44,450 bases of DNA from Escherichia phage vB_EcoP-101101UKE1. The position numbers and the translations under genes are program-made. Each line of letters begins with the position of its first letter. Position 1 is the first letter of the stretch. Location: sequence record MZ234012.1; one strand, given 5' to 3'. Below the pieces are notes generated by a model. The model was given only the letters and a program-made list of their open reading frames with translations. It was not told where the DNA came from and searched no databases. Shown piece after piece: positions 3,707-36,272 of this stretch.

Positions 3707-3729
3707 ATTTACCGGACACTATAGGATAG
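3707..3729 (+). promoter_or_regulatory. phage RNAP promoter (ATTTACCGGACACTATAGGATAG)
   Basis: Matches the recurrent element ATTTACYGGACACTATAGAAG found about 12 times in the window, which is close to the SP6 promoter ATTTAGGTGACACTATAGAAGAG. Confidence 0.75.
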
Positions 3730-3870
3730 CCGTCGGAGACGGGAAAGAAAGGGAAGATAAAGGATATAAAAGGAAGTAATAGGTATTAAAGGTTATATAG
3801 GTTATCTAGGAATACCTATTACCTTCTCCCTTCCTCTTATTACTACTTAGAGGAAGGGCAGATCTAGGTT

Positions 3871-3886
3871 GTCTCACATGTGAGAC
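3871..3886. promoter_or_regulatory. conserved 16-bp palindrome GTCTCACATGTGAGAC (copy 2 of 6)
   Basis: Perfect inverted repeat immediately upstream of the promoter at 3892. Confidence 0.6.
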
Positions 3887-3891
3887 TTCGT

Positions 3892-3914
3892 ATTTACCGG
3901 ACAGTATAGATAAG
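3892..3914 (+). promoter_or_regulatory. phage RNAP promoter variant (ATTTACCGGACAGTATAGATAAG)
   Basis: Consensus-like element with a C-to-G change in the CACTATA core (CAGTATA), upstream of the gp1.1-like gene. T7 likewise has promoters directly before gene 1.1. Confidence 0.55.
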
Positions 3915-3939
3915 ACTAACTTACTTTGGAGATTTAACC

Positions 3940-4068
3940 ATGCGTAACTTTGAGAAGATGACCCGTAAAGCTAACCGTTTTGACATGGAAGAAGGGCAGA
4001 AGAAAGGCAAGAAGCTGAATAAACCTGTCCGTGACCGTGCATCTAAACGCGCTGCGTGGGAGTTCTAA
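3940..4068 (+). CDS. T7 gp1.1-like small basic protein (42 aa, MRNFEKMTRKANRFDMEEGQKKGKKLNKPVRDRASKRAAWEF)
   Basis: Short ORF below the six-frame track cutoff. N-terminus MRNFEKMT and overall length and basic character match my recollection of T7 gene 1.1, and it sits directly after the RNAP gene as in T7. Confidence 0.6.
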   Translation: MRNFEKMTRKANRFDMEEGQKKGKKLNKPVRDRASKRAAWEF

Positions 4069-4071
4069 GTT

Positions 4072-6060
4072 ATGGCTATTATTCAGAATGTACCGTGTCC
4101 TGCCTGTCAAAAGAATGGACATGATATTACTGGCAACCATCTTATGATATTTGACGACGGAGCAGGATACTGTAACCGTGGTCACTTCCATGATAACGGT
4201 AAACCTTATTACCACAAGCCAGAGGGTGGCATCGAGATAACCGAATTGCCTATTACTGGCAATATCAAATATACACCTTCTCAATTCAAAGAAATGGAGA
4301 AGGAAGGGAAGATAAGCGACCCTAAGCTACGCGCCATCGCTCTTGGTGGTATGCGTATGAAAGACCGTTGGGAGGTCATGAATGAGCAAGAAAGGGCAGA
4401 CCAAGAAGCAGAGTGGAAACTTGATGTTGAATGGTTCCTCACGCTTAAGCGTAAGAACCTTGTTTCCCGACACATTCGCGGCGACATTTGCGCATTGTAT
4501 GATGTACGTGTTGGGCACGATGAAGAGGGTAGAGTCTCACGGCATTACTATCCGCGCTTCGAAAAAGGTGAGCTAGTAGGCGCTAAATGTCGCACATTAC
4601 CTAAAGATTTTAAGTTTGGTCATTTAGGTAAACTCTTTGGTATGCAAGATCTTTTCGGTATGAATACTTTGTCTCACGTGTTAGACAAGGGAAGACGAAA
4701 GGATTGCTTGCTTATTGTGGGTGGGGAACTGGATGCACTAGCAGCGCAGCAGATGCTCCTTGATTCTGCCAAGGGCACTAAGTGGGAAGGCCAGCCATAC
4801 CATGTATGGTCTGTCAACAAAGGCGAGTCTTGCCTTGAAGAGATAGTGCAGAACCGTGAGCATATCGCCCAATTCAAGAAGATTATATGGGGTTTTGATG
4901 GAGATGAGGTAGGGCAGAAGCAGAATCAGCAAGCGGCTCGCCTGTTTCCTGGCAAATCCTATATCCTTGAATACCCCTCTGGTTGCAAAGATGCTAACAA
5001 GGCATTGATGGCTGGCAAGGCTAAAGAATTTGTAGATGCATGGTTTAATGCCAAGTCATCTGATGAAGTCTTTGGTAGCCAGATTAAATCTATCGCATCT
5101 CAAAGGGATAAGCTCAAGGCTGCACGTCCAGAGCAAGGACTATCATGGCCTTGGCCTAAGCTGAACAAGGTAACGCTAGGTATTCGTAAGAATCAGCTTA
5201 TCATTGTAGGTGCAGGGTCTGGTGTAGGTAAGACTGAGTTCCTTCGTGAAGTAGTTAAGCACCTCATTGAAGAACACGGTGAATCTGTAGGCATCATTTC
5301 TACAGAAGACCCGATGGTCAAGGTGTCCCGTGCTTTTATCGGCAAGTGGATTGATAAGCGTATTGAGTTGCCGCCAACCAACGACCCGAAAGAAGATGGA
5401 TACCGTGAGGTGTTCGACTACACCGAGGAAGAAGCTAACGCCGCCATTGATTATGTAGCTGATACAGGTAAGCTGTTTGTAGCTGACCTAGAGGGTGACT
5501 ATTCGATGGAAAAGGTAGAGCAAACTTGCCTAGAGTTTGAGGCTATGGGTATTTCTAATATCATCATTGATAACTTAACGGGGATTAAATTAGATGAGCG
5601 TGCTTTTGGTGGGAAGGTTGGTGCACTTGATGAATGCGTCAAGCGGATTGGTACTATCAAAGACCGACACCCGGTTACTATATTCCTTGTATCACACCTT
5701 ACACGTCCTCCGGCAAACCGTACCCAACACGAAGAAGGTGGCGAAGTTATCCTTTCTGACTTCCGAGGCTCAGGCGCTATCGGATTCTGGGCATCTTACG
5801 CCTTGGGGATTGAGCGTAATACAAGAGCTGAAACGCTTGACGAAAGGACTACCACGTACATCTCATGTGTCAAAGACCGCGACCAAGGTATCTGGACTGG
5901 AACCAAGGTCATGCTTAAGGGTGACATTCAAACCGGACGTTTAATGGAACCACAAGCCCGTACTAAGTCATTTGACACCGGCGAAGCAAGGCAACAAGAA
6001 GTACCGGATTTACCGGACACTATAGAAGAGACTAACTTCGATGAAGAAAGTGAGTTCTGA
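4072..6060 (+). CDS. DNA primase/helicase (T7 gp4-like), 662 aa
   Basis: N-terminal zinc ribbon CPACQKNGHD...CNRGH, helicase Walker A GAGSGVGKT, and an acidic C-terminal tail ending DEESEF. Confidence 0.92.
   Translation: MAIIQNVPCPACQKNGHDITGNHLMIFDDGAGYCNRGHFHDNGKPYYHKPEGGIEITELPITGNIKYTPSQFKEMEKEGKISDPKLRAIALGGMRMKDRWEVMNEQERADQEAEWKLDVEWFLTLKRKNLVSRHIRGDICALYDVRVGHDEEGRVSRHYYPRFEKGELVGAKCRTLPKDFKFGHLGKLFGMQDLFGMNTLSHVLDKGRRKDCLLIVGGELDALAAQQMLLDSAKGTKWEGQPYHVWSVNKGESCLEEIVQNREHIAQFKKIIWGFDGDEVGQKQNQQAARLFPGKSYILEYPSGCKDANKALMAGKAKEFVDAWFNAKSSDEVFGSQIKSIASQRDKLKAARPEQGLSWPWPKLNKVTLGIRKNQLIIVGAGSGVGKTEFLREVVKHLIEEHGESVGIISTEDPMVKVSRAFIGKWIDKRIELPPTNDPKEDGYREVFDYTEEEANAAIDYVADTGKLFVADLEGDYSMEKVEQTCLEFEAMGISNIIIDNLTGIKLDERAFGGKVGALDECVKRIGTIKDRHPVTIFLVSHLTRPPANRTQHEEGGEVILSDFRGSGAIGFWASYALGIERNTRAETLDERTTTYISCVKDRDQGIWTGTKVMLKGDIQTGRLMEPQARTKSFDTGEARQQEVPDLPDTIEETNFDEESEF
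6008..6030 (+). promoter_or_regulatory. phage RNAP promoter (ATTTACCGGACACTATAGAAGAG)
   Basis: Exact consensus, embedded in the 3' end of the primase/helicase coding sequence. Confidence 0.75.
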
Positions 6061-6081
6061 TTAGTGTACTTATCAGGGCTT

Positions 6082-6097
6082 GTCTCACACGTGAGAC
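6082..6097. promoter_or_regulatory. conserved palindrome GTCTCACACGTGAGAC with extended arms (copy 3 of 6)
   Basis: Lies inside a longer imperfect hairpin gggcttGTCTCACACGTGAGACaggctc followed by ttatt, just after the primase/helicase stop. Confidence 0.6.
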
Positions 6098-6136
6098 AGG
6101 CTCTTATTAAGTACATTAAATAACTGGAGATTGATT

Positions 6137-6820
6137 ATGTATAAATTAGTATTGAATGTAGGTGATTATGTTCGTAACATCAATGTAACCTCACGTAGAT
6201 ATCGTTGCCGTGGTACTGTGACTAATGTAAGTGAAAACAGCTACTATGTAGAGTACAGTAATGGTATTAGACAGGCTTATCAAAAGGAATCAGCACATAA
6301 CTACCTTGAGAAGATTGGAGAGGTAAGCAATCAATGTAAGTGCGTACACGATGAGGTTTGCGATAAGTGTGCCCGCCAGCTGCATAAAATGCTATTATAC
6401 CCTCTTCGCTATGGTGCTGGTGTTCAAACATTAGCAGAGGCATATGGCAAAAGTAAGATCACACTCAAGAAAGAGCGCCGCAATGTAATCACTGGTAAGA
6501 CTCAAAGTGAAATGATTAAACTATGTGGCACTGCATTAGGTGTTACGCAGTTTAATACTCGTTCATTGGGTAAATCCACAGGGCAAGCTATGGTAAAGAT
6601 TGGCGAAGCCATGATGCATCCAAATGTACCTGTACGAATCATGGATGTTGACCATGCAATCACAGAACACGGTACGCAACGACGTGTAATTAATAAGCAT
6701 TTTGCCGACACTATAGAAGGTATTATTCGTAAGCAAGAGTTGAAGGGTCTTCACATCTTAAATGGTGAAGAATTACTGTACCTACCTATCGTTACTGAAG
6801 AAACATACGTGAATATCTAA
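6137..6820 (+). CDS. hypothetical protein (227 aa)
   Basis: ORF with RBS ggaga 6 nt upstream of ATG 6137 (the track's 6131 start is a TTG). No motif recognised. Confidence 0.5.
   Translation: MYKLVLNVGDYVRNINVTSRRYRCRGTVTNVSENSYYVEYSNGIRQAYQKESAHNYLEKIGEVSNQCKCVHDEVCDKCARQLHKMLLYPLRYGAGVQTLAEAYGKSKITLKKERRNVITGKTQSEMIKLCGTALGVTQFNTRSLGKSTGQAMVKIGEAMMHPNVPVRIMDVDHAITEHGTQRRVINKHFADTIEGIIRKQELKGLHILNGEELLYLPIVTEETYVNI
6699..6720 (+). promoter_or_regulatory. possible weak phage promoter (ATTTTGCCGACACTATAGAAGG)
   Basis: Core GACACTATAGAAGG is perfect but the upstream specificity region has 3 mismatches. It lies inside the 6137..6820 ORF. Confidence 0.35.
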
Positions 6821-6830
6821 GGAGTTAATC

Positions 6831-7049
6831 ATGACTAAGGTATTAATTTATATGCGTGGACCTCATAAATGCTATGCAGTTGTAGCACCAAATGGTGTTA
6901 AGCCCTATAGTACTTCAAAAGGATTGGCATTAATAGGTGCTAGTAGTAGTGCAAGTTTCCAAATGGAACTTTTTGGTCATTGGACTGAATGGCAATTCCG
7001 TGAGGATTTTAAAGTCATTGGCAGCTTCATGGTGAAACATGCAGAATAA
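6831..7049 (+). CDS. hypothetical protein (72 aa)
   Basis: Strong RBS taaggag upstream of ATG 6831. Confidence 0.45.
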   Translation: MTKVLIYMRGPHKCYAVVAPNGVKPYSTSKGLALIGASSSASFQMELFGHWTEWQFREDFKVIGSFMVKHAE

Positions 7050-7225
7050 ACATAGTCTTAAAATGTTCGATGGTCATGAAGACCTGCAAGCCAAGATTAC
7101 TAACCAAGCCTTCCTGTTCGCACAGTTAACTATGGCTGAAGCAAAGAAGAATAGCCTGACGCGTGAACAGGTTATCAAGGAAAGTGAAGTGAAACGTAAG
7201 ATTCGCAGTCGATAAGTCAAGGGTT

Positions 7226-7241
7226 GTCTCACACGTGAGAC
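7226..7241. promoter_or_regulatory. conserved palindrome GTCTCACACGTGAGAC with extended arms (copy 4 of 6)
   Basis: aagggttGTCTCACACGTGAGACagccttt forms a roughly 12-bp imperfect stem followed by a T-rich stretch. Confidence 0.6.
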
Positions 7242-7272
7242 AGCCTTTCATCATATTGATTGGAGGTGCATT

Positions 7273-7380
7273 ATGCCACGTGATTATGATTCTGATTGGG
7301 ATTTCCAAGATTCAATGAATCCAAAACCAGAACGTTCAGATGATTACTACGAAACAGAGGCAATGTATGAAGACTATTAA
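7273..7380 (+). CDS. small acidic protein (35 aa, MPRDYDSDWDFQDSMNPKPERSDDYYETEAMYEDY)
   Basis: Strong RBS ggaggtg before ATG 7273. Below the ORF-track size cutoff. Confidence 0.35.
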   Translation: MPRDYDSDWDFQDSMNPKPERSDDYYETEAMYEDY

Positions 7381-7585
7381 ATTAAGCAAGGTTTGCTCTT
7401 GCGGTAAAGGTTATCGCAGTCGTATTGATGGTAAGTGTGGGCATTGCAGGTCTAAGAAAGAGGCTGCTTTGTTTGATAAGTACCACAATGAATTAGCATA
7501 TAACTATCCTCATCTAACACCTAATTCTTTATTAGGACTTGGTTATAGGGTTAAATACTTTGGAGCAATCTATGAAATCAATTGA
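7367..7585 (+). CDS. small zinc-ribbon protein (CxxC...CxxC)
   Basis: Internal start MKTIKLSKVCSCGKGYRSRIDGKCGHCRSKK with RBS agagg. Its 3' end overlaps the DNA polymerase start. Confidence 0.4.
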   Translation: MKTIKLSKVCSCGKGYRSRIDGKCGHCRSKKEAALFDKYHNELAYNYPHLTPNSLLGLGYRVKYFGAIYEIN

Positions 7586-10118
7586 TTGGAAGAAGGAGGC
7601 AGAAGGTCGTATCCTCGTGATGGATGCGGAAGCTAAAGGACTCCTTGACGCTATCCGATATGGACACCGTGAAGATGTGCATATCATTTGCTGCATGGAT
7701 TTGCTTACTACCGAGGAGTTTCTCTTCTTTGACCCGTATGAGATGCGTGACCCTGAAGCAAGAGAACGCCTGAAGGAATGGGAAGGTCATCAAGACGGAA
7801 CCTTGGTTGATGGTGTTAACTTCCTGAAGCATTGTGAAGCTATTGTGTCACAGAACTTACTAGGGTATGACGGACTTCTCTTTGAGAAAGCATTCCCTGA
7901 TATTTGGAAGGGCTTTAACTATACCGAGAAGCGCGGTAAGGGCAGACTCCGTGCTGACCTGTGTCCGGTGCGAGTCATGGATACGCTGGTGATGAGTCGC
8001 CTGTTAAACCCCGATAGACGCCTTCCTCCGCAAGCATATGCCAAAGGTATGGGTAACGTCGCCCCTCACTCAATTGAGGCGCACGGCATCCGTATAGGCC
8101 GCTATAAACCGGAGAACGAGGACTGGTCTAAACTAACTGACCACATGGTTCACCGTGTACGTGAGGACGTGGCGATTGGTCGTGACTTGTTCCTCTGGCT
8201 CTTTAACGGGGAATGGATGGAGCACAAACGCCGTGGCGTGAATAAACGCACTGGCCTAGGTATTGAGACAGCCTTCCACATGGAGTCCATTGTGGCGCTG
8301 GAGATGAGCCGTCAGGCAGAGCGTGGATTCCGTCTGGATATTGACAAAGCACTAGCGCGATGCGAAGAACTGGACGCTAAGATTGACGAGACAGTCGCAG
8401 CGTTCCGCCCTCACATGCCTATGCGTATCAAGTCTAAGCCTTTTAAACCGGAAGAAAAGAATGAAGTATGCCAACGCGCAAATGAGTATGGAGCTAGCAA
8501 CAATATACCTACTGTCCTTGACCCCTCACACTTTCTTCATGCCGAGAGACGAGGAGATCGCAAGACAGTATGGAGTGTCACTACTAAGTCTGGTGATTGG
8601 TCGGCTAGTGTCAAGAAAGACTTTCCTCACCTTAGAGGAAACCGTAATGACACGCCAAGCATCAAGTGGATTGGCGCTTACTCGCCTGTTACTTTCGAAG
8701 AGATTCCCTTGGGTAACAGGGATACAGTTAAGCAAGTGCTCTATGATTATGGATGGAAAGGTGTTGAATTTAACGATACCGAGCAAGCGCATCTCGATGA
8801 GCACGGAGTGTTACCCAAACCTTGGAGTGGTAAGATAAATGAAAAGTCCCTTACTTTATGGCAAGAGAGAGCCGCACGTGAAGGTAAAACAGTCCCTGAT
8901 TGGTGCTTGGGTATCGCTGCATGGTACATACTCGTATCCCGTCGTGGTCAGATACTCAACCGTGGTGACGTTGAAGCCTTCAACGAGAAGGGAACGTGGC
9001 CCTCGCAGGCTGGTGTACGAAAGTGTCGCGGCCTTGTACCTGTAGCATTCAACAAGGAGCTAGGAATCAATGCGCAGCAATACTACGAGAGGTACGGATG
9101 TTGGCCTACGTCTGACAAAGATGATGGAGAGTGGCGTGTTCCAGCTGTTGCTATTAGCATTGGCACTTCTACGTTCCGTATGCGTCATCGTAACGTGGTC
9201 AATATTCCTGCCCGTGGCTTGTATCCTTTACGTGATTTATTCATAGCAGGGAAAGGCAAGCTAATCCTTGGTTGTGACGGTGCAGGTCTTGAACTGCGTG
9301 TCCTGTCTCACTTCATGAATGACCCTGAGTACCAAGAGATTGTACTGCACGGTGATATTCATACGCATAACCAGATGAAGGCTGGTCTTCCTAAGCGTGA
9401 TATGGCGAAGACGTTTATATACGCCTTCCTCTATGGCTCTGGTATAGCCAACCTTGCAGCAGTATGTGGTGTTACTGAGGAAGAAATGAAGGAAGTTGTG
9501 GCAAGATTCGAGATTGAACTGCCGTCTCTTGCACGTCTTCGTGAGAATGTTATCGCACAAGGTAACAAGTTTGGCTACCTGCAAGCACCTGATGGGCATT
9601 GGGGTCGCATCCGCATGTCTGGTGGTGAACTTAAAGAGCACACGATGCTTAACGTATTACTCCAGATGACTGGCTCTTTGTGTATGAAATATGCATTAGT
9701 CAAGGCATTTGCAGTAATGCGCAAGGAAGGTGTAGCCTTGGATGCTATGGGAAATCCTTGTGGTGTGGCTAACGTGCATGATGAAATCCAGATGGAAGTT
9801 CCTGAAGAGGAGGTCTTGTATCTTAACTACGACCTACCTTTCACCTTAGATGGGTTCGAAACAGAGAAGGCTGCCGTGAAGGCAGTGTTCGATGCAGAGG
9901 AGAAACGTGTTCATGTGGATTCTGAAGGACGTATGTGGTCTGCTGCAAACCTCGTTAGTGTTGATGCTGATGCTGGTGTATTGCATTGCCAGCGCCGTTA
10001 TCACCGTGCAGGTCATATCATTGCCGACGCCATGACTTGGGCAGGGCAGTATCTGAAGATGCGTTGCCCGATGGCAGGCGAATATAAGATTGGCGCAAGT
10101 TGGAAGGAAACACACTGA
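7572..10118 (+). CDS. family A DNA polymerase with 3'-5' exonuclease domain (T7 gp5-like)
   Basis: Exo I motif ILVMDAEAKG, pol motif A DGAGLELRVLSHF, motif B KTFIYAFLYG and motif C VHDEIQ. Start chosen at ATG 7572 (RBS tggag); the track ORF opens at 7539. Confidence 0.92.
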   Translation: MKSIDWKKEAEGRILVMDAEAKGLLDAIRYGHREDVHIICCMDLLTTEEFLFFDPYEMRDPEARERLKEWEGHQDGTLVDGVNFLKHCEAIVSQNLLGYDGLLFEKAFPDIWKGFNYTEKRGKGRLRADLCPVRVMDTLVMSRLLNPDRRLPPQAYAKGMGNVAPHSIEAHGIRIGRYKPENEDWSKLTDHMVHRVREDVAIGRDLFLWLFNGEWMEHKRRGVNKRTGLGIETAFHMESIVALEMSRQAERGFRLDIDKALARCEELDAKIDETVAAFRPHMPMRIKSKPFKPEEKNEVCQRANEYGASNNIPTVLDPSHFLHAERRGDRKTVWSVTTKSGDWSASVKKDFPHLRGNRNDTPSIKWIGAYSPVTFEEIPLGNRDTVKQVLYDYGWKGVEFNDTEQAHLDEHGVLPKPWSGKINEKSLTLWQERAAREGKTVPDWCLGIAAWYILVSRRGQILNRGDVEAFNEKGTWPSQAGVRKCRGLVPVAFNKELGINAQQYYERYGCWPTSDKDDGEWRVPAVAISIGTSTFRMRHRNVVNIPARGLYPLRDLFIAGKGKLILGCDGAGLELRVLSHFMNDPEYQEIVLHGDIHTHNQMKAGLPKRDMAKTFIYAFLYGSGIANLAAVCGVTEEEMKEVVARFEIELPSLARLRENVIAQGNKFGYLQAPDGHWGRIRMSGGELKEHTMLNVLLQMTGSLCMKYALVKAFAVMRKEGVALDAMGNPCGVANVHDEIQMEVPEEEVLYLNYDLPFTLDGFETEKAAVKAVFDAEEKRVHVDSEGRMWSAANLVSVDADAGVLHCQRRYHRAGHIIADAMTWAGQYLKMRCPMAGEYKIGASWKETH

Positions 10119-10234
10119 TGGATAGGCTTGACATTGTTTACCTATTCTTCACTTTCTTTCTTACACTCCTTATGCTTGCTTGTTATGGGAGTATGAGACT
10201 AGATATATCTGATGAAGAAGAGGGTTACGACTAA
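10118..10234 (+). CDS. small hydrophobic peptide (38 aa, MDRLDIVYLFFTFFLTLLMLACYGSMRLDISDEEEGYD)
   Basis: ATG overlaps the polymerase stop (TGATG). One predicted transmembrane helix plus an acidic C-terminus. Confidence 0.3.
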   Translation: MDRLDIVYLFFTFFLTLLMLACYGSMRLDISDEEEGYD

Positions 10235-10332
10235 TGCAAACTGCTTTTATTATTCTTGGTATCATATTATTTATGGTAGTATTCTGGGCTTTCTCTGGCA
10301 TTGACCCAGATTGTGATGGTAACTACGACTGA
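10234..10332 (+). CDS. small hydrophobic peptide (32 aa, MQTAFIILGIILFMVVFWAFSGIDPDCDGNYD)
   Basis: TAATG-coupled to the preceding peptide, with the same architecture (TM helix plus acidic tail ending YD). Confidence 0.3.
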   Translation: MQTAFIILGIILFMVVFWAFSGIDPDCDGNYD

Positions 10333-10391
10333 GTTATACTCAAGGTCACTTACGAGTGGCCTTTATGAATAACTTAACTGGAGGAAATATA

Positions 10392-10949
10392 ATGAATGAA
10401 CTGAACACTAAGATGCTCAAGAAAGTTTATAATCTTGTATATAGTATCACGGGCCTACACTTCTACCCTGTAGGCGGTGCGGTTCGTGACACCCTGTACG
10501 GATTAACACCTAAAGACTATGATATGGTGTTGCCTGTAGGGTCTATGGCAGATTCTCAGGCGCACGAAATCATGGAAAATATCTCTGAAGAGATGGCAAT
10601 TATGGGATTTAGTACCAAACTCTACCAATCATACGGTATCAATTTAGGTTATGAAATCAACCCTACCTCTTTTCAGGCTATGTTCCTTAGCTGCATGAAA
10701 GTGCAGATGCGTAATTGCCAACTTGATTTGCTTCTTTCTAAGGCTGAAACCATCCAAGATCATGTACGTAAGCACGATTGCAATATGAATATGGTGTGGT
10801 TCGATGGTAAAGATATCAAGTGGGAGCACGGCGGTGTTACTCCTTTCGTTCCTGTGTTAGAGTTCAACCCTGACGGATGTGATCGTCGCATTGCTTACAT
10901 GGACAAGAAGCGCCATGAACTTATCCGTCACAAATTAATGCATCTTTGA
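10392..10949 (+). CDS. minimal Pol-beta-superfamily nucleotidyltransferase with CCA-adding-enzyme/poly(A)-polymerase head motif
   Basis: Motif VGGAVRDTLYGLTPKDYDMV (GGxVRD followed by DxD) matches the class II CCA-adding enzyme head signature. RBS ggagga 7 nt before ATG 10392. Protein is only ~185 aa. Confidence 0.6.
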   Translation: MNELNTKMLKKVYNLVYSITGLHFYPVGGAVRDTLYGLTPKDYDMVLPVGSMADSQAHEIMENISEEMAIMGFSTKLYQSYGINLGYEINPTSFQAMFLSCMKVQMRNCQLDLLLSKAETIQDHVRKHDCNMNMVWFDGKDIKWEHGGVTPFVPVLEFNPDGCDRRIAYMDKKRHELIRHKLMHL

Positions 10950-10970
10950 TTTACCGGACACTATAGAAGG
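10949..10970 (+). promoter_or_regulatory. phage RNAP promoter (ATTTACCGGACACTATAGAAGG)
   Basis: Consensus match. Confidence 0.75.
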
Positions 10971-11035
10971 AAGTCCTAGGTAATCTAGGTTTATAAGGTA
11001 GTATAGGTAATTAAGTAAATATAGGAGATATAAAC

Positions 11036-11413
11036 ATGTCTATGGTAACTACTCTGGTATTTGTAGCTCAATACTTTCGTGGTCTGGCTAATAAGTTCAA
11101 GTCCAAGGCTATCAAAGCTATTGAGTCTCGCATCGAGGCAGTACAGGCAGAGCAAGTTAAAGTTGAAGAACATCGTAGTTCTCAAATGATTGACTGCCAT
11201 AACCGCTACTATGCATCTCGTGATGACCTTAATGCACGCCAAGTCAAAGAGGTTGAAGAGATGCTGGCACGTCACCAGCAAGAGCGCGACAGCCTGAAAG
11301 CTGAATTTGAAGAGAACAAGGCATCCATCGCCCTTGTACATCAAGCCGCATCTGACAACCTGAAGAAAGAGATTGTTATGCTGGAAATTGAGTTAGACAA
11401 CCTGACCAAATAA
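11036..11413 (+). CDS. hypothetical membrane-anchored coiled-coil protein (125 aa)
   Basis: RBS aggag. N-terminal hydrophobic segment MSMVTTLVFVAQYF followed by heptad-like charged sequence. Confidence 0.45.
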   Translation: MSMVTTLVFVAQYFRGLANKFKSKAIKAIESRIEAVQAEQVKVEEHRSSQMIDCHNRYYASRDDLNARQVKEVEEMLARHQQERDSLKAEFEENKASIALVHQAASDNLKKEIVMLEIELDNLTK

Positions 11414-11490: not shown

Positions 11491-12297
11491 ATGGCACGTG
11501 GTGATTTTGATTTTGGTGCTCAGGTTACTAAAGCTGAAGGTAAGGTTTTTAAGAACCCTGAAGTTGGTGATCATGAAGCAGTAATCTCTGGCATCATTCA
11601 TGTGGGTTCCTTCCAAGATATCTTTAAGAAAGGTAATACCACTGAAGTTAAGAAGCCAGCAAACTTTGTTCTTGTTAAGATTGTACTGATGGGTGACGAT
11701 GACAAGAACGAAGATGATTCTCGCATGGAACAGTGGATGGCTGTGCCTCTGAAGTCTGGTGACAAGGCAACCTTGACTAAGTTCCTGAATGCAGTTGACC
11801 CTAAAGAGCTGCTTGGTGGTTTCGATGACTTCATCGGTGAATGCCTGACTGCAACTATGGTTGGCTCTGGCGACAAGAATGATGATGGTACTTTCAAGTA
11901 TGTTAACTGGAAAGGCTTTGGCGGTATGCCTGATAAGTTGAAGAAGCTTGTACTGGCTCAGGTAGAAGAGGAAGGTCTGTCTATGACAGGTCATATCACC
12001 TTCGACAAGCTGACCAAAGAAATCCTTGATGACATTCCTGCTAACTTGGTGCGTCAATACTTCCTTAATGAAACACCTCGTGGTAAGAACCTGTCTGTTG
12101 CTGGTTCTCACGTAGAAGCAATCATTAAAGCTGCTCGTGAAGAAGACCCAGAGTGGAAGAAAGCCAAGAAGAAAGATGACGAGGATGCTACTCCAGCTAA
12201 TCGTAAGTCTCTGGATACTGGCGAGTCTGTTCCACAGGAAGTACCTGAAGCAGAAGATACTCCTGCACCGGAGATGGATGAGGACGCGGAATATTAA
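11491..12297 (+). CDS. putative single-stranded DNA-binding protein (gp2.5-like), 268 aa
   Basis: Own promoter, strong RBS aggag, highly biased codon usage, and an acidic C-terminal tail ending DEDAEY (T7 gp2.5 has an acidic tail ending in F). The assignment is tentative. Confidence 0.45.
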   Translation: MARGDFDFGAQVTKAEGKVFKNPEVGDHEAVISGIIHVGSFQDIFKKGNTTEVKKPANFVLVKIVLMGDDDKNEDDSRMEQWMAVPLKSGDKATLTKFLNAVDPKELLGGFDDFIGECLTATMVGSGDKNDDGTFKYVNWKGFGGMPDKLKKLVLAQVEEEGLSMTGHITFDKLTKEILDDIPANLVRQYFLNETPRGKNLSVAGSHVEAIIKAAREEDPEWKKAKKKDDEDATPANRKSLDTGESVPQEVPEAEDTPAPEMDEDAEY

Positions 12298-12525: not shown

Positions 12526-12526
12526 A

Positions 12527-12542
12527 GTCTCACGTGTGAGAC
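12527..12542. promoter_or_regulatory. conserved palindrome GTCTCACGTGTGAGAC (copy 5 of 6)
   Basis: Immediately after the stop of 12307..12525 and 15 nt upstream of the promoter at 12558. Confidence 0.6.
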
Positions 12543-12629: not shown

Positions 12630-13010
12630 ATGTTCAAGATTGAAACTATCGTAAACCGTGTTGTTAAAGGTGCTGCTCTGGTATCCGTTGAGTCTTTCAT
12701 TATCGTCGATGAAGCTGATCAACTGGTAGCTGGTACTAAGGCTTACGATACCCGTGAAGAAGCTCAGGCTAAGATTGACAGCATGGGTAACTTCGCTGCT
12801 GGTCTGGAGTTCGCTCGCGCTTGCTTCCCTGAGCAGGCTGACAAAGCTCAGATTGGTAAGGCTAATATCGTAGCTGAATATCTGGATTGGATTGCTGCTG
12901 GTAAGCCGGTGAAAGAAGTTAAGTCTGCTGAAGAAGCTGAATCTCAGGCAGTAGAAGAAGAAGTAGCTGCACCGGTAGATGCTCCGGTAAGCGAAGAGGA
13001 AGAGTTTTAA
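12630..13010 (+). CDS. abundant acidic protein (126 aa) with C-terminal acidic tail ending SEEEEF
   Basis: Strong RBS aaaggag, own promoter, codon usage like the capsid gene, and a terminator directly downstream. Confidence 0.5.
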   Translation: MFKIETIVNRVVKGAALVSVESFIIVDEADQLVAGTKAYDTREEAQAKIDSMGNFAAGLEFARACFPEQADKAQIGKANIVAEYLDWIAAGKPVKEVKSAEEAESQAVEEEVAAPVDAPVSEEEEF

Positions 13011-13380: not shown

Positions 13381-14321
13381 TAGATGCTGACATGTTACCC
13401 TACATCGTAGGTTATACAATCAGTGACATGACTTATGTACGAGCCACAACTCGTGTTAAGTCAGGACAAGTCCCATCAATCAAAGATACACCTGAGTGTA
13501 AGCAAGCGTGTGACCGTGTGAACTCCTTGCTCAACTCTTGGGTGTATGCAGCAGAGTGTGATGCAGCTAAGTTATTCATGACGAAATCAGAAGCTAACTT
13601 CCGTGTTCGCCTAGCCTTCACCAAGCCTTATAAGGGTCAACGTAAGACCGAGAAGCCTCCGTTCTTCTATGAATTGCGAGAGCATCTCTTAGAGGTTCAT
13701 GGTGCAATCTTGGCAGATGGAGAAGAGGCTGATGACCTCATGAGCATTGCACAATGGGACAGCCACCGCCGCTTCCAGCAAGATACAGGTAACGAGTTCC
13801 CTATCGGTAGTCCAGAGCATAAAGCATTCTCTGATACTTGCATCGTTTCCTTAGATAAGGATTTGATGATTGTTCCCGGTTGGCATCTTCAGCCGGGTCA
13901 AGAGAAGAAATGGGTAGAGCCTATGGGTTGGCTTGAGCTACGCCGTAAGGCTAATGGTCAGGTTAAAGACCTTAAAGGTGCTGGCCTCATGTTTCATTAT
14001 GCACAGATGATTATCGGTGATGATATTGATAACTATGCTGGCATACCTGGACGTGGTGCTAAATACGCCTATGATCTTCTCAAAGATTGTAAGACAGAGA
14101 AAGAGTTGTACATGGCAGTGCTTGGTGCTTACAAGGCTAAGTTCGGACATGGACAAGTTAAGATTAAGAATTACCGAGGTGGTTATCGTATCGGCAAGTC
14201 TTTTGACCTGATGCTCGAATGTGGTCGCCTAGCTCACATGGCAAGATTCAAAGGTGATATATGGCGAGCCGATAAGAACCCAATCTTGTGGGGAGATGAT
14301 GCGAAATGGTTAGCAAATTAA
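13293..14321 (+). CDS. 5'-3' exonuclease (T7 gp6-like, FEN family)
   Basis: Motifs IVSLDKDL and GDDIDNYAGIPGRG resemble T7 gp6 CDKDF and GDITDGYSGIAGWG. Start at ATG 13293 with RBS gaggagtgg; the track ORF opens at 13227. Confidence 0.85.
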   Translation: MRPNFDFGATVSEDNNLLLWPTEGNRIALIDADMLPYIVGYTISDMTYVRATTRVKSGQVPSIKDTPECKQACDRVNSLLNSWVYAAECDAAKLFMTKSEANFRVRLAFTKPYKGQRKTEKPPFFYELREHLLEVHGAILADGEEADDLMSIAQWDSHRRFQQDTGNEFPIGSPEHKAFSDTCIVSLDKDLMIVPGWHLQPGQEKKWVEPMGWLELRRKANGQVKDLKGAGLMFHYAQMIIGDDIDNYAGIPGRGAKYAYDLLKDCKTEKELYMAVLGAYKAKFGHGQVKIKNYRGGYRIGKSFDLMLECGRLAHMARFKGDIWRADKNPILWGDDAKWLAN

Positions 14322-20913: not shown

Positions 20914-20936
20914 ATTTACTGGACACTATAGAAGGG
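20914..20936 (+). promoter_or_regulatory. phage RNAP promoter upstream of the capsid gene (ATTTACTGGACACTATAGAAGGG)
   Basis: Consensus match. A strong promoter before the capsid gene is typical of T7-like phages. Confidence 0.8.
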
Positions 20937-29092: not shown

Positions 29093-29108
29093 GTCTCACA
29101 TGTGAGAC
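29093..29108. promoter_or_regulatory. conserved palindrome GTCTCACATGTGAGAC with extended arms (copy 6 of 6)
   Basis: aaggcttGTCTCACATGTGAGACaggtcttt, between internal virion protein genes B and C. Confidence 0.6.
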
Positions 29109-29139
29109 AGGTCTTTATGATAGGCACTATGGAGGAATT

Positions 29140-32100: not shown

Positions 32101-32337
32101 GAATTAGTACAATCCCGTTATGAGGCTGGCTTTCAGACTAAGGGTTTGATAGACCAAATACCACTAGTAGGTGTTGGTCAAGATGCATATCGTTTAGCAG
32201 ATTCTATAACTAAATATGCAGAGGGTGATACAGAAGGTGTAGATGTGGCACGTAGGGCTTTACGCTTAGTGCCTCTAACTAATGTAATAGGAATCCAGAA
32301 CGCATTGCGTTATGGCTTAGATGAACTGGAGGATTGA
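29140..32337 (+). CDS. internal virion (core/ejection) protein C
   Basis: 1065 aa, RBS ggagga, in the T7 gp16 position. Confidence 0.7.
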   Translation: MEQDIKTNWAGYVQSTPEPFSIEAAPVSAPTIRQRNELQEQVLEAKADADILGAVGAAFQNEWLAFGGKRWYDRATADFTPQPDFEIQPEQREALRFKYGTDMMQTITEGVRSEDELNFRIQNADEDLERNKRIAQAGWVGSVATIGAAVLDPVGWVASIPTGGAAKVGLVGRAVRGAIAAGVSNAAIESVLVQGDMTRDLDDIMVALGSGMAMGGVIGAVARGRATKLSEQGDDRAASIVRSADAGDRYVRAVADDSIGAMRVKGEEVLTEGAFDISSKGEDLLKTLQREGNSIDMTPRRWAGTMSALGTVVHSSHDASVRGLGARLFESPQGLGMQKASASLMQNTNLNRLKSADMNRFNDGFDLWLKENNINPVAGHTNSHYVQQYNEKVWEAVRIGMDESTPKSIRMAAEGQQAMYREALALRKRSGEAGFENIKADSKYMPDIFDTMKARRQFDRIGKDIDKEDIIELFSRAYQNGARKIPKEVADEIARAQVNRVVDATLTGRMSFEKAMSGQTKAEYEAIMRKAGFSDEEIEKMVEALDNKETRDNISNRAKMSLGLDVTQEYNGIRMRDFMNTNVEELTDNYMKEAAGGAALARQGFSTYQAALNAIDLVERNARNAAKDSKASLALDEEIRQMREGLRLIMGKSIDVDPQALSTKMLRRGRDITGVLRLGQMGFAQLGELANFMGEFGIAATTIALGKQFRFTSKALRSGDGFFRDKNLAEVERMVGYIGEDNWLTTKGARPDEFGDVTTVKGMMAHFDQSMNSIRRAQTNLSLFRMAQGSLERMTNRQIALSFIDHLEGKKIIPQKKLEELGLTQEFMTNLQKHYDANSKGSGLLGFDTMPYAMGETLANAIRRKSGLIIQRNFIGDEGIWMNKALGKTFAQLKSFSLVSGEKQFGRGIRHDKIGLAKKTAYGFALGSIVYAAKAYVNSIGREDQDEYLEEKLSPKGLAFGAMGMMSTTAVFSLGGDFLGGLGVLPSELVQSRYEAGFQTKGLIDQIPLVGVGQDAYRLADSITKYAEGDTEGVDVARRALRLVPLTNVIGIQNALRYGLDELED

Positions 32338-33299
32338 TGAGTTATACTTTCACAGAACATATAGCCAACGGTACGCAAGTAACCTATCCCTTTAGATTTG
32401 CTGGCAGGGATAAAGGCTATCTTCGTGCCTCAGATGTGATAGTGGAATCTCTTCAAGGTAACACTTGGATTGAAGTTACATCTGGCTGGCAACTAACTGG
32501 CACGCACCAGATTACTTTTGATGTAGCACCAGTTGCAGGTTTGAAGTTCCGTATTCGAAGGGAAGTACAAAAGGAGTATCCATACGCTGAGTTTGACCGT
32601 GGTGTTACCTTGGATATGAAGTCTTTAAATGGTTCTTTCATTCATATACTGGAGATTACACAGGAGTTACTTGACGGGTTTTATCCAGAAGGATACTTCA
32701 TTAAACAGAATGTAAGCTGGGGCGGCAATAAGATTACTGATTTGGCTGATGGCACAAATCCTGGAGATGCAGTAAATAAAGGGCAGCTTGATGCCATCGA
32801 CAAGAAGCATACAGATTGGAACGCCAAACAGGACATTGAGATTGCTGGCCTTAAGGCTGGTATGACTTCTGGTATTGCGCACAGAACTGTTCCTTGGTAC
32901 ACGATAGCCAAAGGTGGTGAGATTTCCGTAAAACCACCTTATGAGTTTCAAGATGCACTAGTTTTCCTTAATGGGGTGTTGCAGCACCAAATTGTAGGCG
33001 CATACTCTATAAGCAACAACACTATCACTTTCGCAGAGCCGCTTGTGGCGGGTACAGAGGTGTATGTGCTGATTGGTAGTCGTGTGGCTACATCTGAACC
33101 TAATATTCAGTTAGAGTTGAACTTTGACTTAATAGAAGGCCAACAAGTAGTACAGATTGGCTCTGCATTTAAGTACATTGAGGTCTACCTTGATGGATTA
33201 TTACAACCTAAACTTGCTTACCAGGTAGACGGTGACATTGTTACTTTCTCAGAAAGAGTACCAGAATGCCGGATGACTGCTAAGATTATCACAGCATAA
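32337..33299 (+). CDS. tail fiber-like adaptor protein (T7 gp17 N-terminal-domain-like)
   Basis: ~320 aa, in the gene 17 position before the holin. Too short to be a full fiber, and distal tailspikes are encoded separately at the right end. Confidence 0.6.
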   Translation: MSYTFTEHIANGTQVTYPFRFAGRDKGYLRASDVIVESLQGNTWIEVTSGWQLTGTHQITFDVAPVAGLKFRIRREVQKEYPYAEFDRGVTLDMKSLNGSFIHILEITQELLDGFYPEGYFIKQNVSWGGNKITDLADGTNPGDAVNKGQLDAIDKKHTDWNAKQDIEIAGLKAGMTSGIAHRTVPWYTIAKGGEISVKPPYEFQDALVFLNGVLQHQIVGAYSISNNTITFAEPLVAGTEVYVLIGSRVATSEPNIQLELNFDLIEGQQVVQIGSAFKYIEVYLDGLLQPKLAYQVDGDIVTFSERVPECRMTAKIITA

Positions 33300-33308
33300 G
33301 GAGGTGGG

Positions 33309-33503
33309 ATGATTAACTCCGAACTGGTAGATAGTGGTGTGAAGCTTGCGCCACCTGCACTCGTATCAGGTGGGTACTTCCTCGGTATCAGTTGGGATAA
33401 TTGGGTGTTAATAGCAACATTCATTTATACCGTGTTGCAAATTGGGGACTGGTTTTATAATAAGTTCAAGATTTGGAGGGAGAAGCGTGAGCGTACACAA
33501 TAA
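33309..33503 (+). CDS. class II holin (T7 gp17.5-like)
   Basis: 64 aa. FIYTVLQIGDW resembles T7 gp17.5 IAYTVVQIG. RBS taaggagg. Confidence 0.65.
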   Translation: MINSELVDSGVKLAPPALVSGGYFLGISWDNWVLIATFIYTVLQIGDWFYNKFKIWREKRERTQ

Positions 33504-33786
33504 ACATGCAGCTACAGAGGATGAGGTTGGCATTCTGCATGGTGCTATTACCAAAATCTTCAATAAGAAAGCACAGGCAATACTGGACACTATAGAAGAA
33601 GACCCTGATGCAGCATTACATTTAGTGTCTGGTAAGGATATTGGTGCGATGTGTAAGTGGGTTCTTGATAACGGCATTACCGCCACACCTGCTGCACAGC
33701 AGGAAGAGTCCAAGTTATCTAAGCGCCTCAAGGCTATCCGAGAGGCATCCAGTGGCAAGATTATTCAGTTTACAAAAGAGGAGTGA
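33487..33786 (+). CDS. putative terminase small subunit (assigned by position)
   Basis: GTG start after RBS ggaggg, located between the holin and the HNH/large terminase genes as for T7 gene 18. No motif recognised. Confidence 0.4.
   Translation: MSVHNKHAATEDEVGILHGAITKIFNKKAQAILDTIEEDPDAALHLVSGKDIGAMCKWVLDNGITATPAAQQEESKLSKRLKAIREASSGKIIQFTKEE
33579..33600 (+). promoter_or_regulatory. phage RNAP promoter variant (AATACTGGACACTATAGAAGAA)
   Basis: Core ACTGGACACTATAGAAG is perfect. It lies inside the putative small terminase gene, upstream of the HNH and large terminase genes. Confidence 0.55.
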
Positions 33787-33787
33787 T

Positions 33788-34231
33788 ATGCATAGATGGT
33801 GTGAATCTCAAGGTTATACCATCTTACCTTCTGGTGTCATCCTTTCAAAGGGTGGCACCCCTCTCAAACCATTCAAGGCGGGTAGGGGTTATTTAGCAGT
33901 TAAAATTAAAAATAAAGAAGGTAGATGGCGTAATGTCTATGTTCATCAATTAGTGGCTTATAAGTATTTACCTAAAACTAATAATGAAGTAAACCACAAA
34001 GACGGCGATAAGCACAACAATGATGTTAGCAACTTGGAGTGGGTAACAAGAAGCGAGAATAACTATTTAAAATGCAATGGAAATGATAGGAGTACCTTAA
34101 ATAGCTATTTAGCAAGATTAAAAGATTGCTTCTTGCAAGGTAAGGGTGTAGCAGAAACCGCTAGACTTACTGGTAAAAGTGAACCAAGAGTTTCTTCTCT
34201 CTTTAAGGAGTGGCGAAATGGCAAAGGCTAG
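33788..34231 (+). CDS. HNH homing endonuclease
   Basis: HNH motif VNHKDGDKHNNDVSNLEWVTRSEN. AT-rich compared with its neighbours. Start ATG 33788 with RBS aagaggag; the track ORF opens at 33641. Confidence 0.8.
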   Translation: MHRWCESQGYTILPSGVILSKGGTPLKPFKAGRGYLAVKIKNKEGRWRNVYVHQLVAYKYLPKTNNEVNHKDGDKHNNDVSNLEWVTRSENNYLKCNGNDRSTLNSYLARLKDCFLQGKGVAETARLTGKSEPRVSSLFKEWRNGKG

Positions 34232-36116
34232 AGAATCACAGGCAGAGGCATTAAAGCGGTGGGAAAACCTTAAAGAACTACAAGACACTTTTAAATATAC
34301 AGCGGAAGGTTTGCTTCTCTTTGCAGATACAGTTATTCATAACTTAATTGCAGGCAACCCTCATCTGATTCGTATGCAGGCTGATATCTTGAAGTTCCTA
34401 TTTTACGGACACAAGTACCGCCTCATCGAAGCGCCTCGTGGTATCGCTAAGACAACACTATCAGCAATCTATACGGTATTCCGTATTATTCATGAACCGC
34501 ATAAGCGTATCATGGTTGTGTCCCAAAACGCCAAGCGAGCAGAGGAAATCGCAGGTTGGGTAGTTAAAATCTTCCGTGGCTTAGACTTTCTTGAGTTTAT
34601 GCTGCCGGATATCTACGCTGGGGACCGTGCATCCGTTAAGGCGTTTGAGATTCATTACACCCTACGTGGTAGTGATAAGTCTCCTTCTGTATCCTGTTAC
34701 TCAATCGAAGCAGGTATGCAGGGTGCTCGTGCTGATATTATTCTAGCGGATGACGTAGAGTCGATGCAGAATGCTCGTACGGCAGCGGGCCGTGCCTTGC
34801 TTGAGGAACTGACTAAGGAGTTTGAATCTATCAACCAGTTTGGGGATATCATTTACCTTGGTACACCTCAGAACGTAAACTCTATCTACAACAACCTACC
34901 TGCTCGTGGTTACTCTGTTCGTATCTGGACTGCGCGTTACCCTTCAGTAGAGCAAGAGCAATGTTATGGCGACTTCCTTGCACCTATGATTGTTCAAGAT
35001 ATGAAGGACAACCCAGCACTTCGCTCAGGGTACGGGTTGGATGGTAATAGTGGTGCACCTTGTGCCCCTGAAATGTATGATGATGAAGTCCTGATTGAGA
35101 AGGAAATCTCTCAGGGTGCTGCTAAGTTCCAGCTTCAGTTCATGCTTAACACTCGCATGATGGATGCTGACAGATACCCATTACGCCTGAACAATCTAAT
35201 CTTCACCTCGTTTGGTACAGAGGAAGTCCCTGTGATGCCTACGTGGAGTAATGATTCCATAAACATCATTGGTGATGCACCTAAGTATGGTAACAAGCCT
35301 ACGGATTTCATGTACAGACCTGTAGCTCGCCCATATGAATGGGGCGCTGTCTCCCGCAAGATTATGTATATTGACCCTGCGGGTGGTGGTAAGAACGGAG
35401 ATGAGACGGGTGTAGCCATCGTATTCCTGCACGGCACATTCATTTATGTGTATCAGTGCTTTGGTGTACCTGGCGGATACCGAGAGTCGTCCCTGAATCG
35501 CATTGTGCAAGCCGCAAAGCAGGCGGGTGTTAAAGAGGTATTCATTGAGAAGAACTTTGGTCATGGCGCGTTTGAGGCGGTAATTAAGCCGTACTTTGAA
35601 CGAGAGTGGCCTGTAACTCTGGAAGAGGATTACGCCACCGGACAGAAAGAGTTGCGTATCATTGAGACGCTGGAGCCGCTCATGGCAGCACATAGGCTTA
35701 TCTTCAATGCAGAGATGGTGAAGTCAGACTTTGAGTCGGTACAGCACTATCCGCTTGAACTACGCATGTCCTACAGTCTTTTCAATCAAATGTCGAACAT
35801 AACGATTGAGAAGAACAGCCTCCGGCACGATGACCGCCTAGACGCCCTGTATGGCGCTATACGGCAATTAACTTCTCAGATAGACTATGACGAGGTTACA
35901 CGGATTAATCGCCTCAGAGCGCAGGAGATGCGCGATTACATCCATGCTATGAATACACCTCATTTACGCAGGGCAATGCTATATGGAGATTACGGTACTG
36001 AGCGAAGAGTGACCAACACTTCCGTAGCGATGCAGCAGCGAGTTTACGGGCAGAACTACCGAAATAAATCGGCAAGCAGAAATACACTTTCTGCAAGGAT
36101 TTCAAGGACTTATTAA
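34218..36116 (+). CDS. terminase large subunit (T7 gp19-like)
   Basis: Walker A-like PRGIAKTT and Walker B-like ILADDVE. Probable start ATG 34218 (RBS aaggag); the track ORF opens at 34179. Confidence 0.9.
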   Translation: MAKARESQAEALKRWENLKELQDTFKYTAEGLLLFADTVIHNLIAGNPHLIRMQADILKFLFYGHKYRLIEAPRGIAKTTLSAIYTVFRIIHEPHKRIMVVSQNAKRAEEIAGWVVKIFRGLDFLEFMLPDIYAGDRASVKAFEIHYTLRGSDKSPSVSCYSIEAGMQGARADIILADDVESMQNARTAAGRALLEELTKEFESINQFGDIIYLGTPQNVNSIYNNLPARGYSVRIWTARYPSVEQEQCYGDFLAPMIVQDMKDNPALRSGYGLDGNSGAPCAPEMYDDEVLIEKEISQGAAKFQLQFMLNTRMMDADRYPLRLNNLIFTSFGTEEVPVMPTWSNDSINIIGDAPKYGNKPTDFMYRPVARPYEWGAVSRKIMYIDPAGGGKNGDETGVAIVFLHGTFIYVYQCFGVPGGYRESSLNRIVQAAKQAGVKEVFIEKNFGHGAFEAVIKPYFEREWPVTLEEDYATGQKELRIIETLEPLMAAHRLIFNAEMVKSDFESVQHYPLELRMSYSLFNQMSNITIEKNSLRHDDRLDALYGAIRQLTSQIDYDEVTRINRLRAQEMRDYIHAMNTPHLRRAMLYGDYGTERRVTNTSVAMQQRVYGQNYRNKSASRNTLSARISRTY

Positions 36117-36136
36117 TTACTGGACACTATAGAAGG
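36115..36136 (+). promoter_or_regulatory. phage RNAP promoter (AATTACTGGACACTATAGAAGG)
   Basis: Consensus match, overlapping the terminase stop codon. Confidence 0.75.
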
Positions 36137-36272
36137 AAGGCCCAGATAATAAGAGAAAATAATAGGTAATATATAGGTTAACCTAGGTTATATAGGTATG
36201 CCTTAGTATGGGTGTACTCTGTACACCCTATTCCTTACTACCTTACTATATTTACATAATAGGAGAGAGACA

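Follow-up and report, generated by a model that had tools for sequence, protein, structure and literature searches.

Introduction

Descriptions of the replication origins of T7-type phages usually go no further than a phage promoter with AT-rich DNA downstream; to our knowledge, no sequence has been identified that sets the promoters acting as origins apart from the rest. Here, we describe three arrays of a short repeated word, each lying just downstream of a promoter in Escherichia phage vB_EcoP-101101UKE1 (sequence record MZ234012.1; the whole stretch of 44,450 bases that was analysed is referred to as the window), and compare them with the origins of T7 and T3. Replication of T7 starts at phi1.1A/phi1.1B, secondary origins such as phiOR and phi6.5 being possible, and a phiOR plasmid replicates with a variant of T7 RNA polymerase (RNAP) once RNase H has been inactivated (PMC8373140). 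The RefSeq record of T3 annotates a 'primary origin of DNA replication' (rep_origin 5682-5758) directly after phi1.05, the first T3 promoter past the RNAP gene. Thus far, a promoter with a leader of low stability, and hairpins within the leader, are the known attributes of T7-type origins.

A further class of described systems is that of the R-loop origins, namely, T4 ori(uvsY) and ori(34), ColE1 RNA II and the mitochondrial LSP-CSB region, the mitochondrial machinery being T7-like. At such origins, RNA made from a promoter is believed to remain hybridized over the stretch just downstream and to prime DNA synthesis there.

Three promoter leaders share a periodic word

The preliminary description of the window had noted related AT-rich leaders after three phage promoters. 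The leader strings that it quoted are found at 3778-3810, 10975-11010 and 36160-36198, in each case after a promoter of the SP6 type. The relationship between the leaders is that of a shared periodic word, a degenerate tandem repeat of ~9.4 nucleotides (nt), and not of colinear sequence: pairwise local alignments compared with shuffles gave P < 0.001 for A-C, a marginal 0.02 for A-B, and 0.07, which is not significant, for B-C. The repeat unit is (C/A)TAGGTA(A/G)T and the spacing is 9.35 ± 0.77 nt over 43 adjacent-unit spacings. The arrays are as follows:

3741..3812, + strand: array A, with GG every 9-10 nt and core units ATAGGTAT, AAAGGTTA and ATAGGTTA at 3780, 3789 and 3798, then CTAGGAAT
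10977..11030, + strand: array B, with AGG at 10978, 10987, 10996 and 11005, and a decayed unit at 11014
36147..36199, + strand: array C, with TAGGT units at 36163, 36174, 36184 and 36193

When the + strand of the whole genome was searched for chains of at least three [AT]AGGT[AT] words spaced by 8-12 nt, only three were found, one per array:

3780/3789/3798, + strand: chain A
10977/10986/10995/11004, + strand: chain B
36163/36174/36184/36193, + strand: chain C

The - strand of the genome contains no chain of this kind, and none of 300 genome-wide dinucleotide shuffles produced one. Shuffling leader by leader, which preserves the AT-rich dinucleotide make-up and is the control that the preliminary description had named as able to overturn it, gave P ≤ 0.0002 for each chain; the similarity therefore exceeds that expected of AT-rich sequence. 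Independently of the word search, Tandem Repeats Finder reports arrays of period 9-10 at 3759-3810, 10977-11025 and 36147-36178, and the autocorrelation of the three leaders peaks at a lag of 9 or 10 (z-score 4.4 at lag 9 for array A). The other promoter leaders have no consistent peak at 9-10 (two give a weak lag-10 signal, z 2.3), and contain TAGGT at most once each. Moreover, with leaders defined by position alone (+1..+90), TAGGT is the top-enriched 5-mer of the array leaders in each of seven genomes. TATAG is enriched ~20-fold in the arrays, the units of which thus resemble the initiation region of the promoters.

The window is the near-complete genome of a Vectrevirus (K1E/K1-5/SP6-like; Autographiviridae, Molineuxvirinae), with 99.9% identity to Escherichia phage vB-Eco-KMB47 over 9 kb (colinear, with an offset of 1,908 bases), and all of its genes are on the + strand. 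SP6-type promoters, TTACYGGACACTATAG(A/G)A, number ~14 in the window, against 0.28 expected by chance, and the consensus matches that serve regions A, B and C are at 3709, 10951 and 36117. The promoters and boundaries of the three regions are:

988-3615, + strand: RNAP gene, the upstream neighbour of region A
3623..3656, + strand: terminator-like hairpin with a T run, just 3' of the RNAP gene and the left boundary of region A
3707..3729, + strand: promoter A1, SP6 type, an exact match to TTACCGGACACTATAG, with its +1 G at 3724
3892..3914, + strand: promoter A2, in tandem with A1, with one mismatch (consensus match at 3894) and its +1 G at 3909
3940..4068, + strand: gene 1.1 homologue of 42 amino acids, the right boundary of region A
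10949..10971, + strand: promoter B, an exact consensus match, with its +1 G at 10966
36115..36137, + strand: promoter C, directly 3' of the terminase large subunit gene (34179-36116), with its +1 G at 36132

The product of the gene at 3940..4068 is 56% identical to T7 gp1.1 and matches Pfam PF08200 (Phage_1_1) with an E value of 8e-16.

All three arrays lie on the transcribed strand in 5' untranslated regions and lack start codons; no + strand open reading frame (ORF) of at least 20 amino acids lies within them, the nearest (36208-36303) spanning the hairpin beyond array C. The leader of region B continues into the ORF at 11036-11413: its Shine-Dalgarno sequence, AGGAG at 11023, is the sixth unit of an exact 9-nt register, and the start codon follows at 11036. 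The distance from array to start codon is ~70 nt in region C and ~130 nt in region A. Array A includes the longest C-free run of the genome (3741-3805; 65 nt), and the two longest G-free tracts (3811-3849 and 36222-36261) directly follow arrays A and C, each of which also has a GC-rich hairpin downstream.

The arrays are conserved, their composition is not

Arrays occupy the equivalent syntenic sites in K1E, SP6 and Klebsiella phage K1-ULIP33. Proteus phage Pm5460 has arrays A and C only, both array B and its downstream gene being missing; Lelliottia phage phD2B has promoters of another type and weaker arrays; and Erwinia phage Era103 has arrays at regions A and C and none at its post-DNA-polymerase promoters. 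Among relatives in IMG/VR, the post-RNAP array can be followed down to ~60% identity of the RNAP C-terminus, and it is lost where the intergenic region is lost. The AGG columns of region C have a consensus of 0.92 across 14 relatives, against 0.67 for the spacers, and the corresponding fractions for region A are 0.74 and 0.63, all of these values being dependent on the alignment.

Arrays consist of 3 to 8 units, and of 22 in Era103, where the post-terminase array (Era103 40265-40440) is a perfect 27-bp unit present 6.5 times. Since a related IMG/VR contig contains this unit only once, the expansion is recent. The preliminary description had stressed the AT-richness of the leaders, and those of the window are indeed 63-70% AT; the Era103 arrays, by contrast, are ~52% GC, and AT-richness is therefore not the conserved property. 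Era103 has a second perfect tandem repeat, 16 bp × 6.5 (AGGTTATAAGGCTGTG), at 13562-13665, extending from the end of the small HNH-like ORF gp16 to the start of gp17. The ACCT clusters at the left ends of the Proteus and Klebsiella relatives were also considered as arrays and were set aside, as their word is a different one, CCTTAGTG.

More distant Autographiviridae, in which the C-terminal region of the terminase is ~45-55% identical, have a post-terminase promoter with an equivalent layout downstream, in which a purine-rich start leads into a periodic array and a hairpin, a pyrimidine tract and a Shine-Dalgarno sequence come next. The words of these arrays are CTAGTAGTC, AGAGCGTAT, AGAGAGTACA (five times) and CCAGTAGC. 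Across 26 non-redundant leaders of this kind, lags 9 and 10 give mean autocorrelation z-scores of 1.67 and 1.88, respectively, compared with at most 0.9 at other lags. In many of these loci (IMG/VR), the periodic leader is followed by a small gene of the PHROG 2725 type, as it is in the window (36273-36551, with a paralogue at 36570-36863). GenBank records mislabel this gene 'acetyl-CoA acetyltransferase'; it has no Pfam match, and the paralogue at 36570-36863, which was the one queried, has no sequence match in the PDB.

Position and duplex stability recall the origins of T7 and T3

Region A is the positional counterpart of the T7 primary origin. It lies between the RNAP gene and the gene 1.1 homologue and has two tandem promoters, as do phi1.1A and phi1.1B in the T7 order gene 1, phi1.1A, R1.1, phi1.1B, gene 1.1. 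T3 differs in that phi1.05 and phi1.1 are ~340 nt apart, with gene 1.05 in between. In common with the primary origins of T7 and T3, the array region is noncoding, is among the least stable duplex segments of its genome and contains periodic short words, albeit TAGGTA(A/G)T at 9-10 nt, whereas T7 and T3 have CTTTAAG at 11-13 nt. Additionally, array A sits between its two promoters and not after the second, and its origin role is only a candidate one. Region C resembles T7 phiOR: its promoter is the first after the terminase large subunit gene and precedes a noncoding leader of ~140-160 nt with periodic words, and AGGTTA and TATATAG words are present in the phiOR leaders of T3 and T7. The genes downstream are not homologous, however, and the SP6 group has several more genes before the genome end.

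Nearest-neighbour duplex stability, with 50-bp windows ranked from the least stable, was used as a blind test. The ranks were:

This window: arrays C, B and A, 1, 3 and 4
T7 control: after phiOL, phi1.1B and phiOR, 1, 2 and 5
T3 control: annotated primary origin, 1; phiOL leader, 2
SP6: A, B and C, 5, 1 and 73
K1-ULIP33: A, B and C, 3, 3 and 29
Pm5460: A and C, 15 and 83
phD2B: A, B and C, 21, 19 and 26
Era103: A and C, 70 and 52

Judged from the sequence, the attributes of a T7-type origin appear to be present in the window, that is, a promoter at the site, a least-stable stretch and, in the case of region A, the position of the primary origin. No origin is indicated by GC skew, which rises monotonically with the transcription strand. 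The primase site of SP6 is reportedly 5'-GCA-3' (Tseng et al. 2000). The arrays contain no C, and the GGGCAGA box that follows array A is kept in some relatives only.

RNA structure in the leaders

RNA elements are genuinely present in the leaders, but the array that they have in common does not form a single fold. The structured elements, and those that adjoin them, are:

3730..3742, + strand: 5' hairpin of the A1 transcript, CCGTC-GGA-GACGG (CCGUCggaGACGG), of five pairs
3772..3827, + strand: long irregular hairpin of region A, formed by pairing between the first array units and an ACCU-rich arm further downstream, AATACCTATTACCTTC, with three AGGT units in its apical part
3828..3857, + strand: second hairpin of region A, CCCTTCCTCT...AGAGGAAGGG, within the G-free tract 3811-3849
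36201..36208, + strand: conserved box CCTTAGTA, between array C and its hairpin, of a word family that recurs near the genome end
36210..36228, + strand: hairpin after array C, GGGTGTAC-tct-GTACACCC (-12.8 kcal/mol, z -3.7)
36222..36261, + strand: G-free pyrimidine tract, with CCTTACTA twice at 36233-36248, reaching the Shine-Dalgarno sequence of the ORF at 36273-36551

The 5' hairpin is conserved, with one of its pairs being GC, AU, CG or UA among relatives. The long hairpin of region A (z -2.6 in the window) folds better than shuffles in all eight lineages tested, with z-scores from -2.1 to -3.8. The perfect hairpin after array C had been recognized in the preliminary description, one base away at 36211-36229; it is retained in relatives in place and structure, though not in sequence (their stems being GGGUGUAC, GGGAGGUA, GGGUACUC and AUCCCCUC), and double changes occur at 5 of its 8 pairs among 14 relatives. 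Taken whole, neither the leader of region B nor that of region C is more stably folded than its shuffles (z-scores +0.6 and +0.1), region C of the relatives ranges from +0.25 to -4.1, and the RNAalifold consensus leaves the arrays unpaired, with small hairpins only. Structure prediction thus provides hairpins in regions A and C, and a common fold for the three leaders can be rejected. Scanning the whole window with Rfam 15 gave no match at the gathering score.

Two observations adjoin these elements. One copy of a CTTAGTG-type word lies between array C and its hairpin (36202), and the string AAGGGCAGAYCTAGGTT occurs twice, at 3848-3870, after the hairpins of region A, and at 41764-41782, in the right-end noncoding region.

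The arrays as candidate replication promoters

By analogy with T7 and T3, we tentatively favour, at something short of an even chance, the interpretation that the three sites are 'replication promoter' modules of the T7 type, with a repeat specific to the SP6/K1E group (Molineuxvirinae). We infer origin activity, together with every mechanistic step that follows, from position (for two of the three sites), low duplex stability and the T7 and T3 controls. The module would consist of a phage RNAP promoter and then an easily melted, C-poor stretch, built in this group from tandem (C/A)TAGGTA(A/G)T units ~9.4 nt apart on the non-template strand. Transcription from the promoter would open the array; the purine-rich transcript would remain paired to the template, its 3' end being passed to the phage DNA polymerase, and the displaced TAGGT strand would offer a landing site for the primase-helicase. 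As the AGG(T) core is conserved and the spacers are free, the word itself is presumably recognized too, a phage factor being one candidate for this role and GC 'clamps' within the RNA:DNA hybrid another. These transcripts are, in addition, genuine mRNA leaders with RNA hairpins, that of region A being the positional counterpart of T7 R1.1.

Several points weigh against this interpretation. The AT-richness is not conserved, as is evident from the composition and the stability ranks (52 and 70) of the Era103 arrays and from the ranks of region C in SP6 (73) and Pm5460 (83), and what is conserved, the word AGG(T), is not explained by a plain unwinding element. The strict sense orientation, the location in a 5' untranslated region without start codons and the register of region B with its Shine-Dalgarno sequence would be predicted equally well by a role in RNA. 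No T7 site matches region B in position, and Pm5460, which lacks the gene downstream of this region, lacks the region as well. The 9.4-nt spacing of the arrays is shorter than the helical repeat of DNA. Lastly, an R-loop estimate (RNA:DNA minus DNA:DNA nearest-neighbour energies) gave percentiles that are inconsistent among phages and unfavourable for the T7 primary origin too, so that the estimate is uninformative. The arrays thereby differ from the R-loop origins, for which they lack a consistently favourable hybrid-stability estimate and whose elements are not tandem arrays of a 9-nt word.

A broader form of the proposal, which we regard as speculative and rather unlikely, is that the Autographiviridae share a 'word code', in which lineage-specific tandem repeats of 9-11 nt directly after replication-type promoters co-evolve with a phage protein that switches the site from transcription to replication. 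The SP6 group would use TAGGTAAT, other clades CTAGTAGTC, AGAGCGTAT or AGAGAGTACA, and T7 and T3 CTTTAAG. The protein could be the primase-helicase or the RNAP itself, the units resembling the promoter core TATAG, and it would recognize the word either in the nascent RNA or on the single strand that is displaced. If true, this would represent a new kind of origin iteron and would define a T7-type origin beyond 'promoter plus AT-rich DNA'.

Alternative roles for the arrays

The strongest competitor, doubtful but to be taken seriously, is that the arrays act in the leader RNA, where unpaired (U)AGGU(A) repeats would bind either 30S subunits, as a standby site and by weak pairing of the Shine-Dalgarno kind, or a protein, be it S1 or an RNA-binding protein of the phage; such a factor would raise or regulate translation, or shield a fast-made, ribosome-free transcript from RNase E. 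This accounts well for the presence of every array on the transcribed strand of a start-codon-free 5' untranslated region, and leader length and architecture are conserved. Furthermore, the arrays are predicted to be unpaired while the flanking hairpins covary, pointing to selection on the leader RNA. The Shine-Dalgarno consensus includes the 4-nt sequence AGGU, and the true Shine-Dalgarno sequence of region B continues the register of its array. Only these 4 nt match, however, and the flanks disfavour any longer anti-Shine-Dalgarno pairing: the preceding base is T in 60 of 76 units and G in 2, and the following base is A or T in 69 of 76 and G in 3. The distant relatives also use words unrelated to the Shine-Dalgarno sequence (CTAGTAGTC, AGAGCGTAT and AGAGAGTACA) in the same periodic architecture, and anti-Shine-Dalgarno pairing is therefore disfavoured as the selected feature. 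Nor does the long interval in region A between array and start codon, with a second promoter in between, favour a translational role, and the most expressed late gene, that of the capsid (promoter at 20916), has no array. The preliminary description had proposed that a shared leader controls mRNA stability, translation or processing. The conserved hairpins make control of stability or processing plausible, whereas the TAGGT array that is actually shared lies outside any shared fold; a role in DNA as an origin fits the position, the duplex instability and the T7 and T3 controls at least as well as does the mRNA-leader role.

Two related ideas can be set aside. Sponge RNAs such as CsrB and RsmZ likewise display many purine GG motifs in unpaired RNA; however, the core in the arrays of all seven genomes is AGGU and not the GGA needed by CsrA, the Era103 units lack GGA altogether, and the RNA is here an mRNA leader. 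A G-quadruplex, suggested by GG every 9-10 nt, would have to form from two-G tracts with loops of 7-8 nt, which is weak, and distant lineages have no GG runs.

Quite unlikely, in our view, is an iteron or operator array, in which the tandem repeats would be read as double-stranded DNA by a phage DNA-binding protein acting as a roadblock or regulator of the three promoters, or as an origin-binding initiator, so that this explanation could itself be part of an origin. Ribbon-helix-helix proteins read tandem repeats of 7-11 bp, and the operators and iterons of this type (ParR-parC, omega heptads) resemble the arrays in having direct repeats of no more than about one helical turn and a variable copy number. 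The conserved core with variable spacers, the range of copy number and, above all, a word that is lineage-specific while its period is constant, suggesting a co-evolving phage partner, are as expected. The arrays differ in lying within a transcribed leader in a fixed sense orientation, which such a protein would not need, and in having no known cognate protein: scans against PHROGs and Pfam, limited to the adjacent genes, revealed no known DNA-binding domain. Moreover, a 9.4-bp spacing sets successive sites on different faces of B-DNA.

We consider it improbable that the arrays are RNase III sites of the T7 R1.1 type, each being one arm of a long irregular hairpin that is cut to define mRNA ends. 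Array A does pair with its ACCU-rich arm in all the lineages tested, the resulting hairpin is flanked by the two tandem promoters and so occupies the place of R1.1 in T7 (in T3, R1.1 is directly after phi1.1), and G-free tracts directly follow arrays A and C. Against this, the hairpin has no sequence similarity to R1.1, a complementary arm is missing from region B, the folding of which does not differ from that of shuffled sequence, and pairing of array C with an anti-array is unsupported in 14 relatives (the z-scores being those given above for region C). By analogy with R1.1, RNase III processing probably applies to the hairpin of region A; as regions B and C have no conserved duplex, it is not the function that the three arrays share.

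That the arrays are a by-product of slippage near strong promoters, with no function of their own, is very improbable: the two perfect repeats of Era103, the single 27-bp unit of its relative and the likeness of the units to the promoter initiation region would fit, but the three positions and one orientation are kept across genera in compact genomes of 44 kb despite freely diverged spacers, and the AGG core is more conserved than those spacers. A link to promoter specificity, considered in view of the TAGGTG within SP6 promoters, was rejected, as K1E-type promoters (CCGGA or CTGGA) are followed by the same arrays.

The TAGGT array, its conservation in the Molineuxvirinae and the 9-10-nt post-terminase arrays are undescribed in the searchable full-text literature, an earlier mention in the 2004 genome papers on SP6 and K1-5 (Dobbins et al.; Scholl et al.) being possible; the GenBank records of SP6 and K1-5 have nothing annotated at the array sites. 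Among the phages of the SP6/K1E group are some that are widely used in therapy and biotechnology. Because its candidate origin regions carry a discrete, conserved and countable repeat, which can be deleted, scrambled or inverted, the question of what makes a promoter an origin becomes directly testable. Were the arrays to act in RNA, they would represent a new type of repeated leader motif for the fast transcripts of single-subunit polymerases, with possible use in SP6/T7-style expression systems. On either interpretation, they are a simple signature with which the sequences of more than 100 phages could be annotated for three regulatory sites.

Other features of the genome

A 16-bp palindrome recurs beside several promoters:

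3689..3704, + strand: palindrome GTCTCACATGTGAGAC, 16 bp, 5 nt upstream of promoter A1
3871..3886, + strand: second copy, upstream of promoter A2
4671-4686, 6082-6097, 7226-7241, 12527-12542, 29093-29108 and 42599-42614: remaining copies

These eight copies of GTCTCAC-NN-GTGAGAC compare with 0.07 expected; they are mostly intergenic, several being just upstream of phage promoters (3709, 3894 and 12560). Relatives have GTCCAAC-NN-GTTGGAC at the same sites, both arms of the palindrome having changed together. The element could serve as an insulating or terminating hairpin in transcripts, or as the target of a dimeric protein.

Towards the genome end, a run of 21 C (42046-42066) lies beside three copies of CTCGCC, and it is probably either the physical end of the genome or an assembly or tailing artefact at the join of a permuted record. 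Words of the (C)CTTAGTG family crowd the surrounding + strand (41752-42772) at a spacing of ~11-14 nt: of the 36 matches to CTTAGTR in the whole genome, where 15 would be expected, 17 are located here. By analogy, they may be the counterpart of the CCTAAAG end repeats of T7.

In the early, host-transcribed region, GCTCTTTAACAA occurs three times exactly (42750-42761, 43295-43306 and 43507-43518), and four times if one mismatch is allowed, against 0.37 expected. This sequence corresponds to the boxA core of rrn-type antitermination signals, which suggests Nus-factor antitermination of early transcription.

Finally, two ORFs of unknown family, at 11491-12297 and 12630-13010, encode strongly acidic C-terminal tails (…DEDAEY and …SEEEEF). 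Such tails recall that of T7 gp2.5, a single-stranded DNA-binding protein, and in this phage group the same role may fall to the 268-residue member of the pair.

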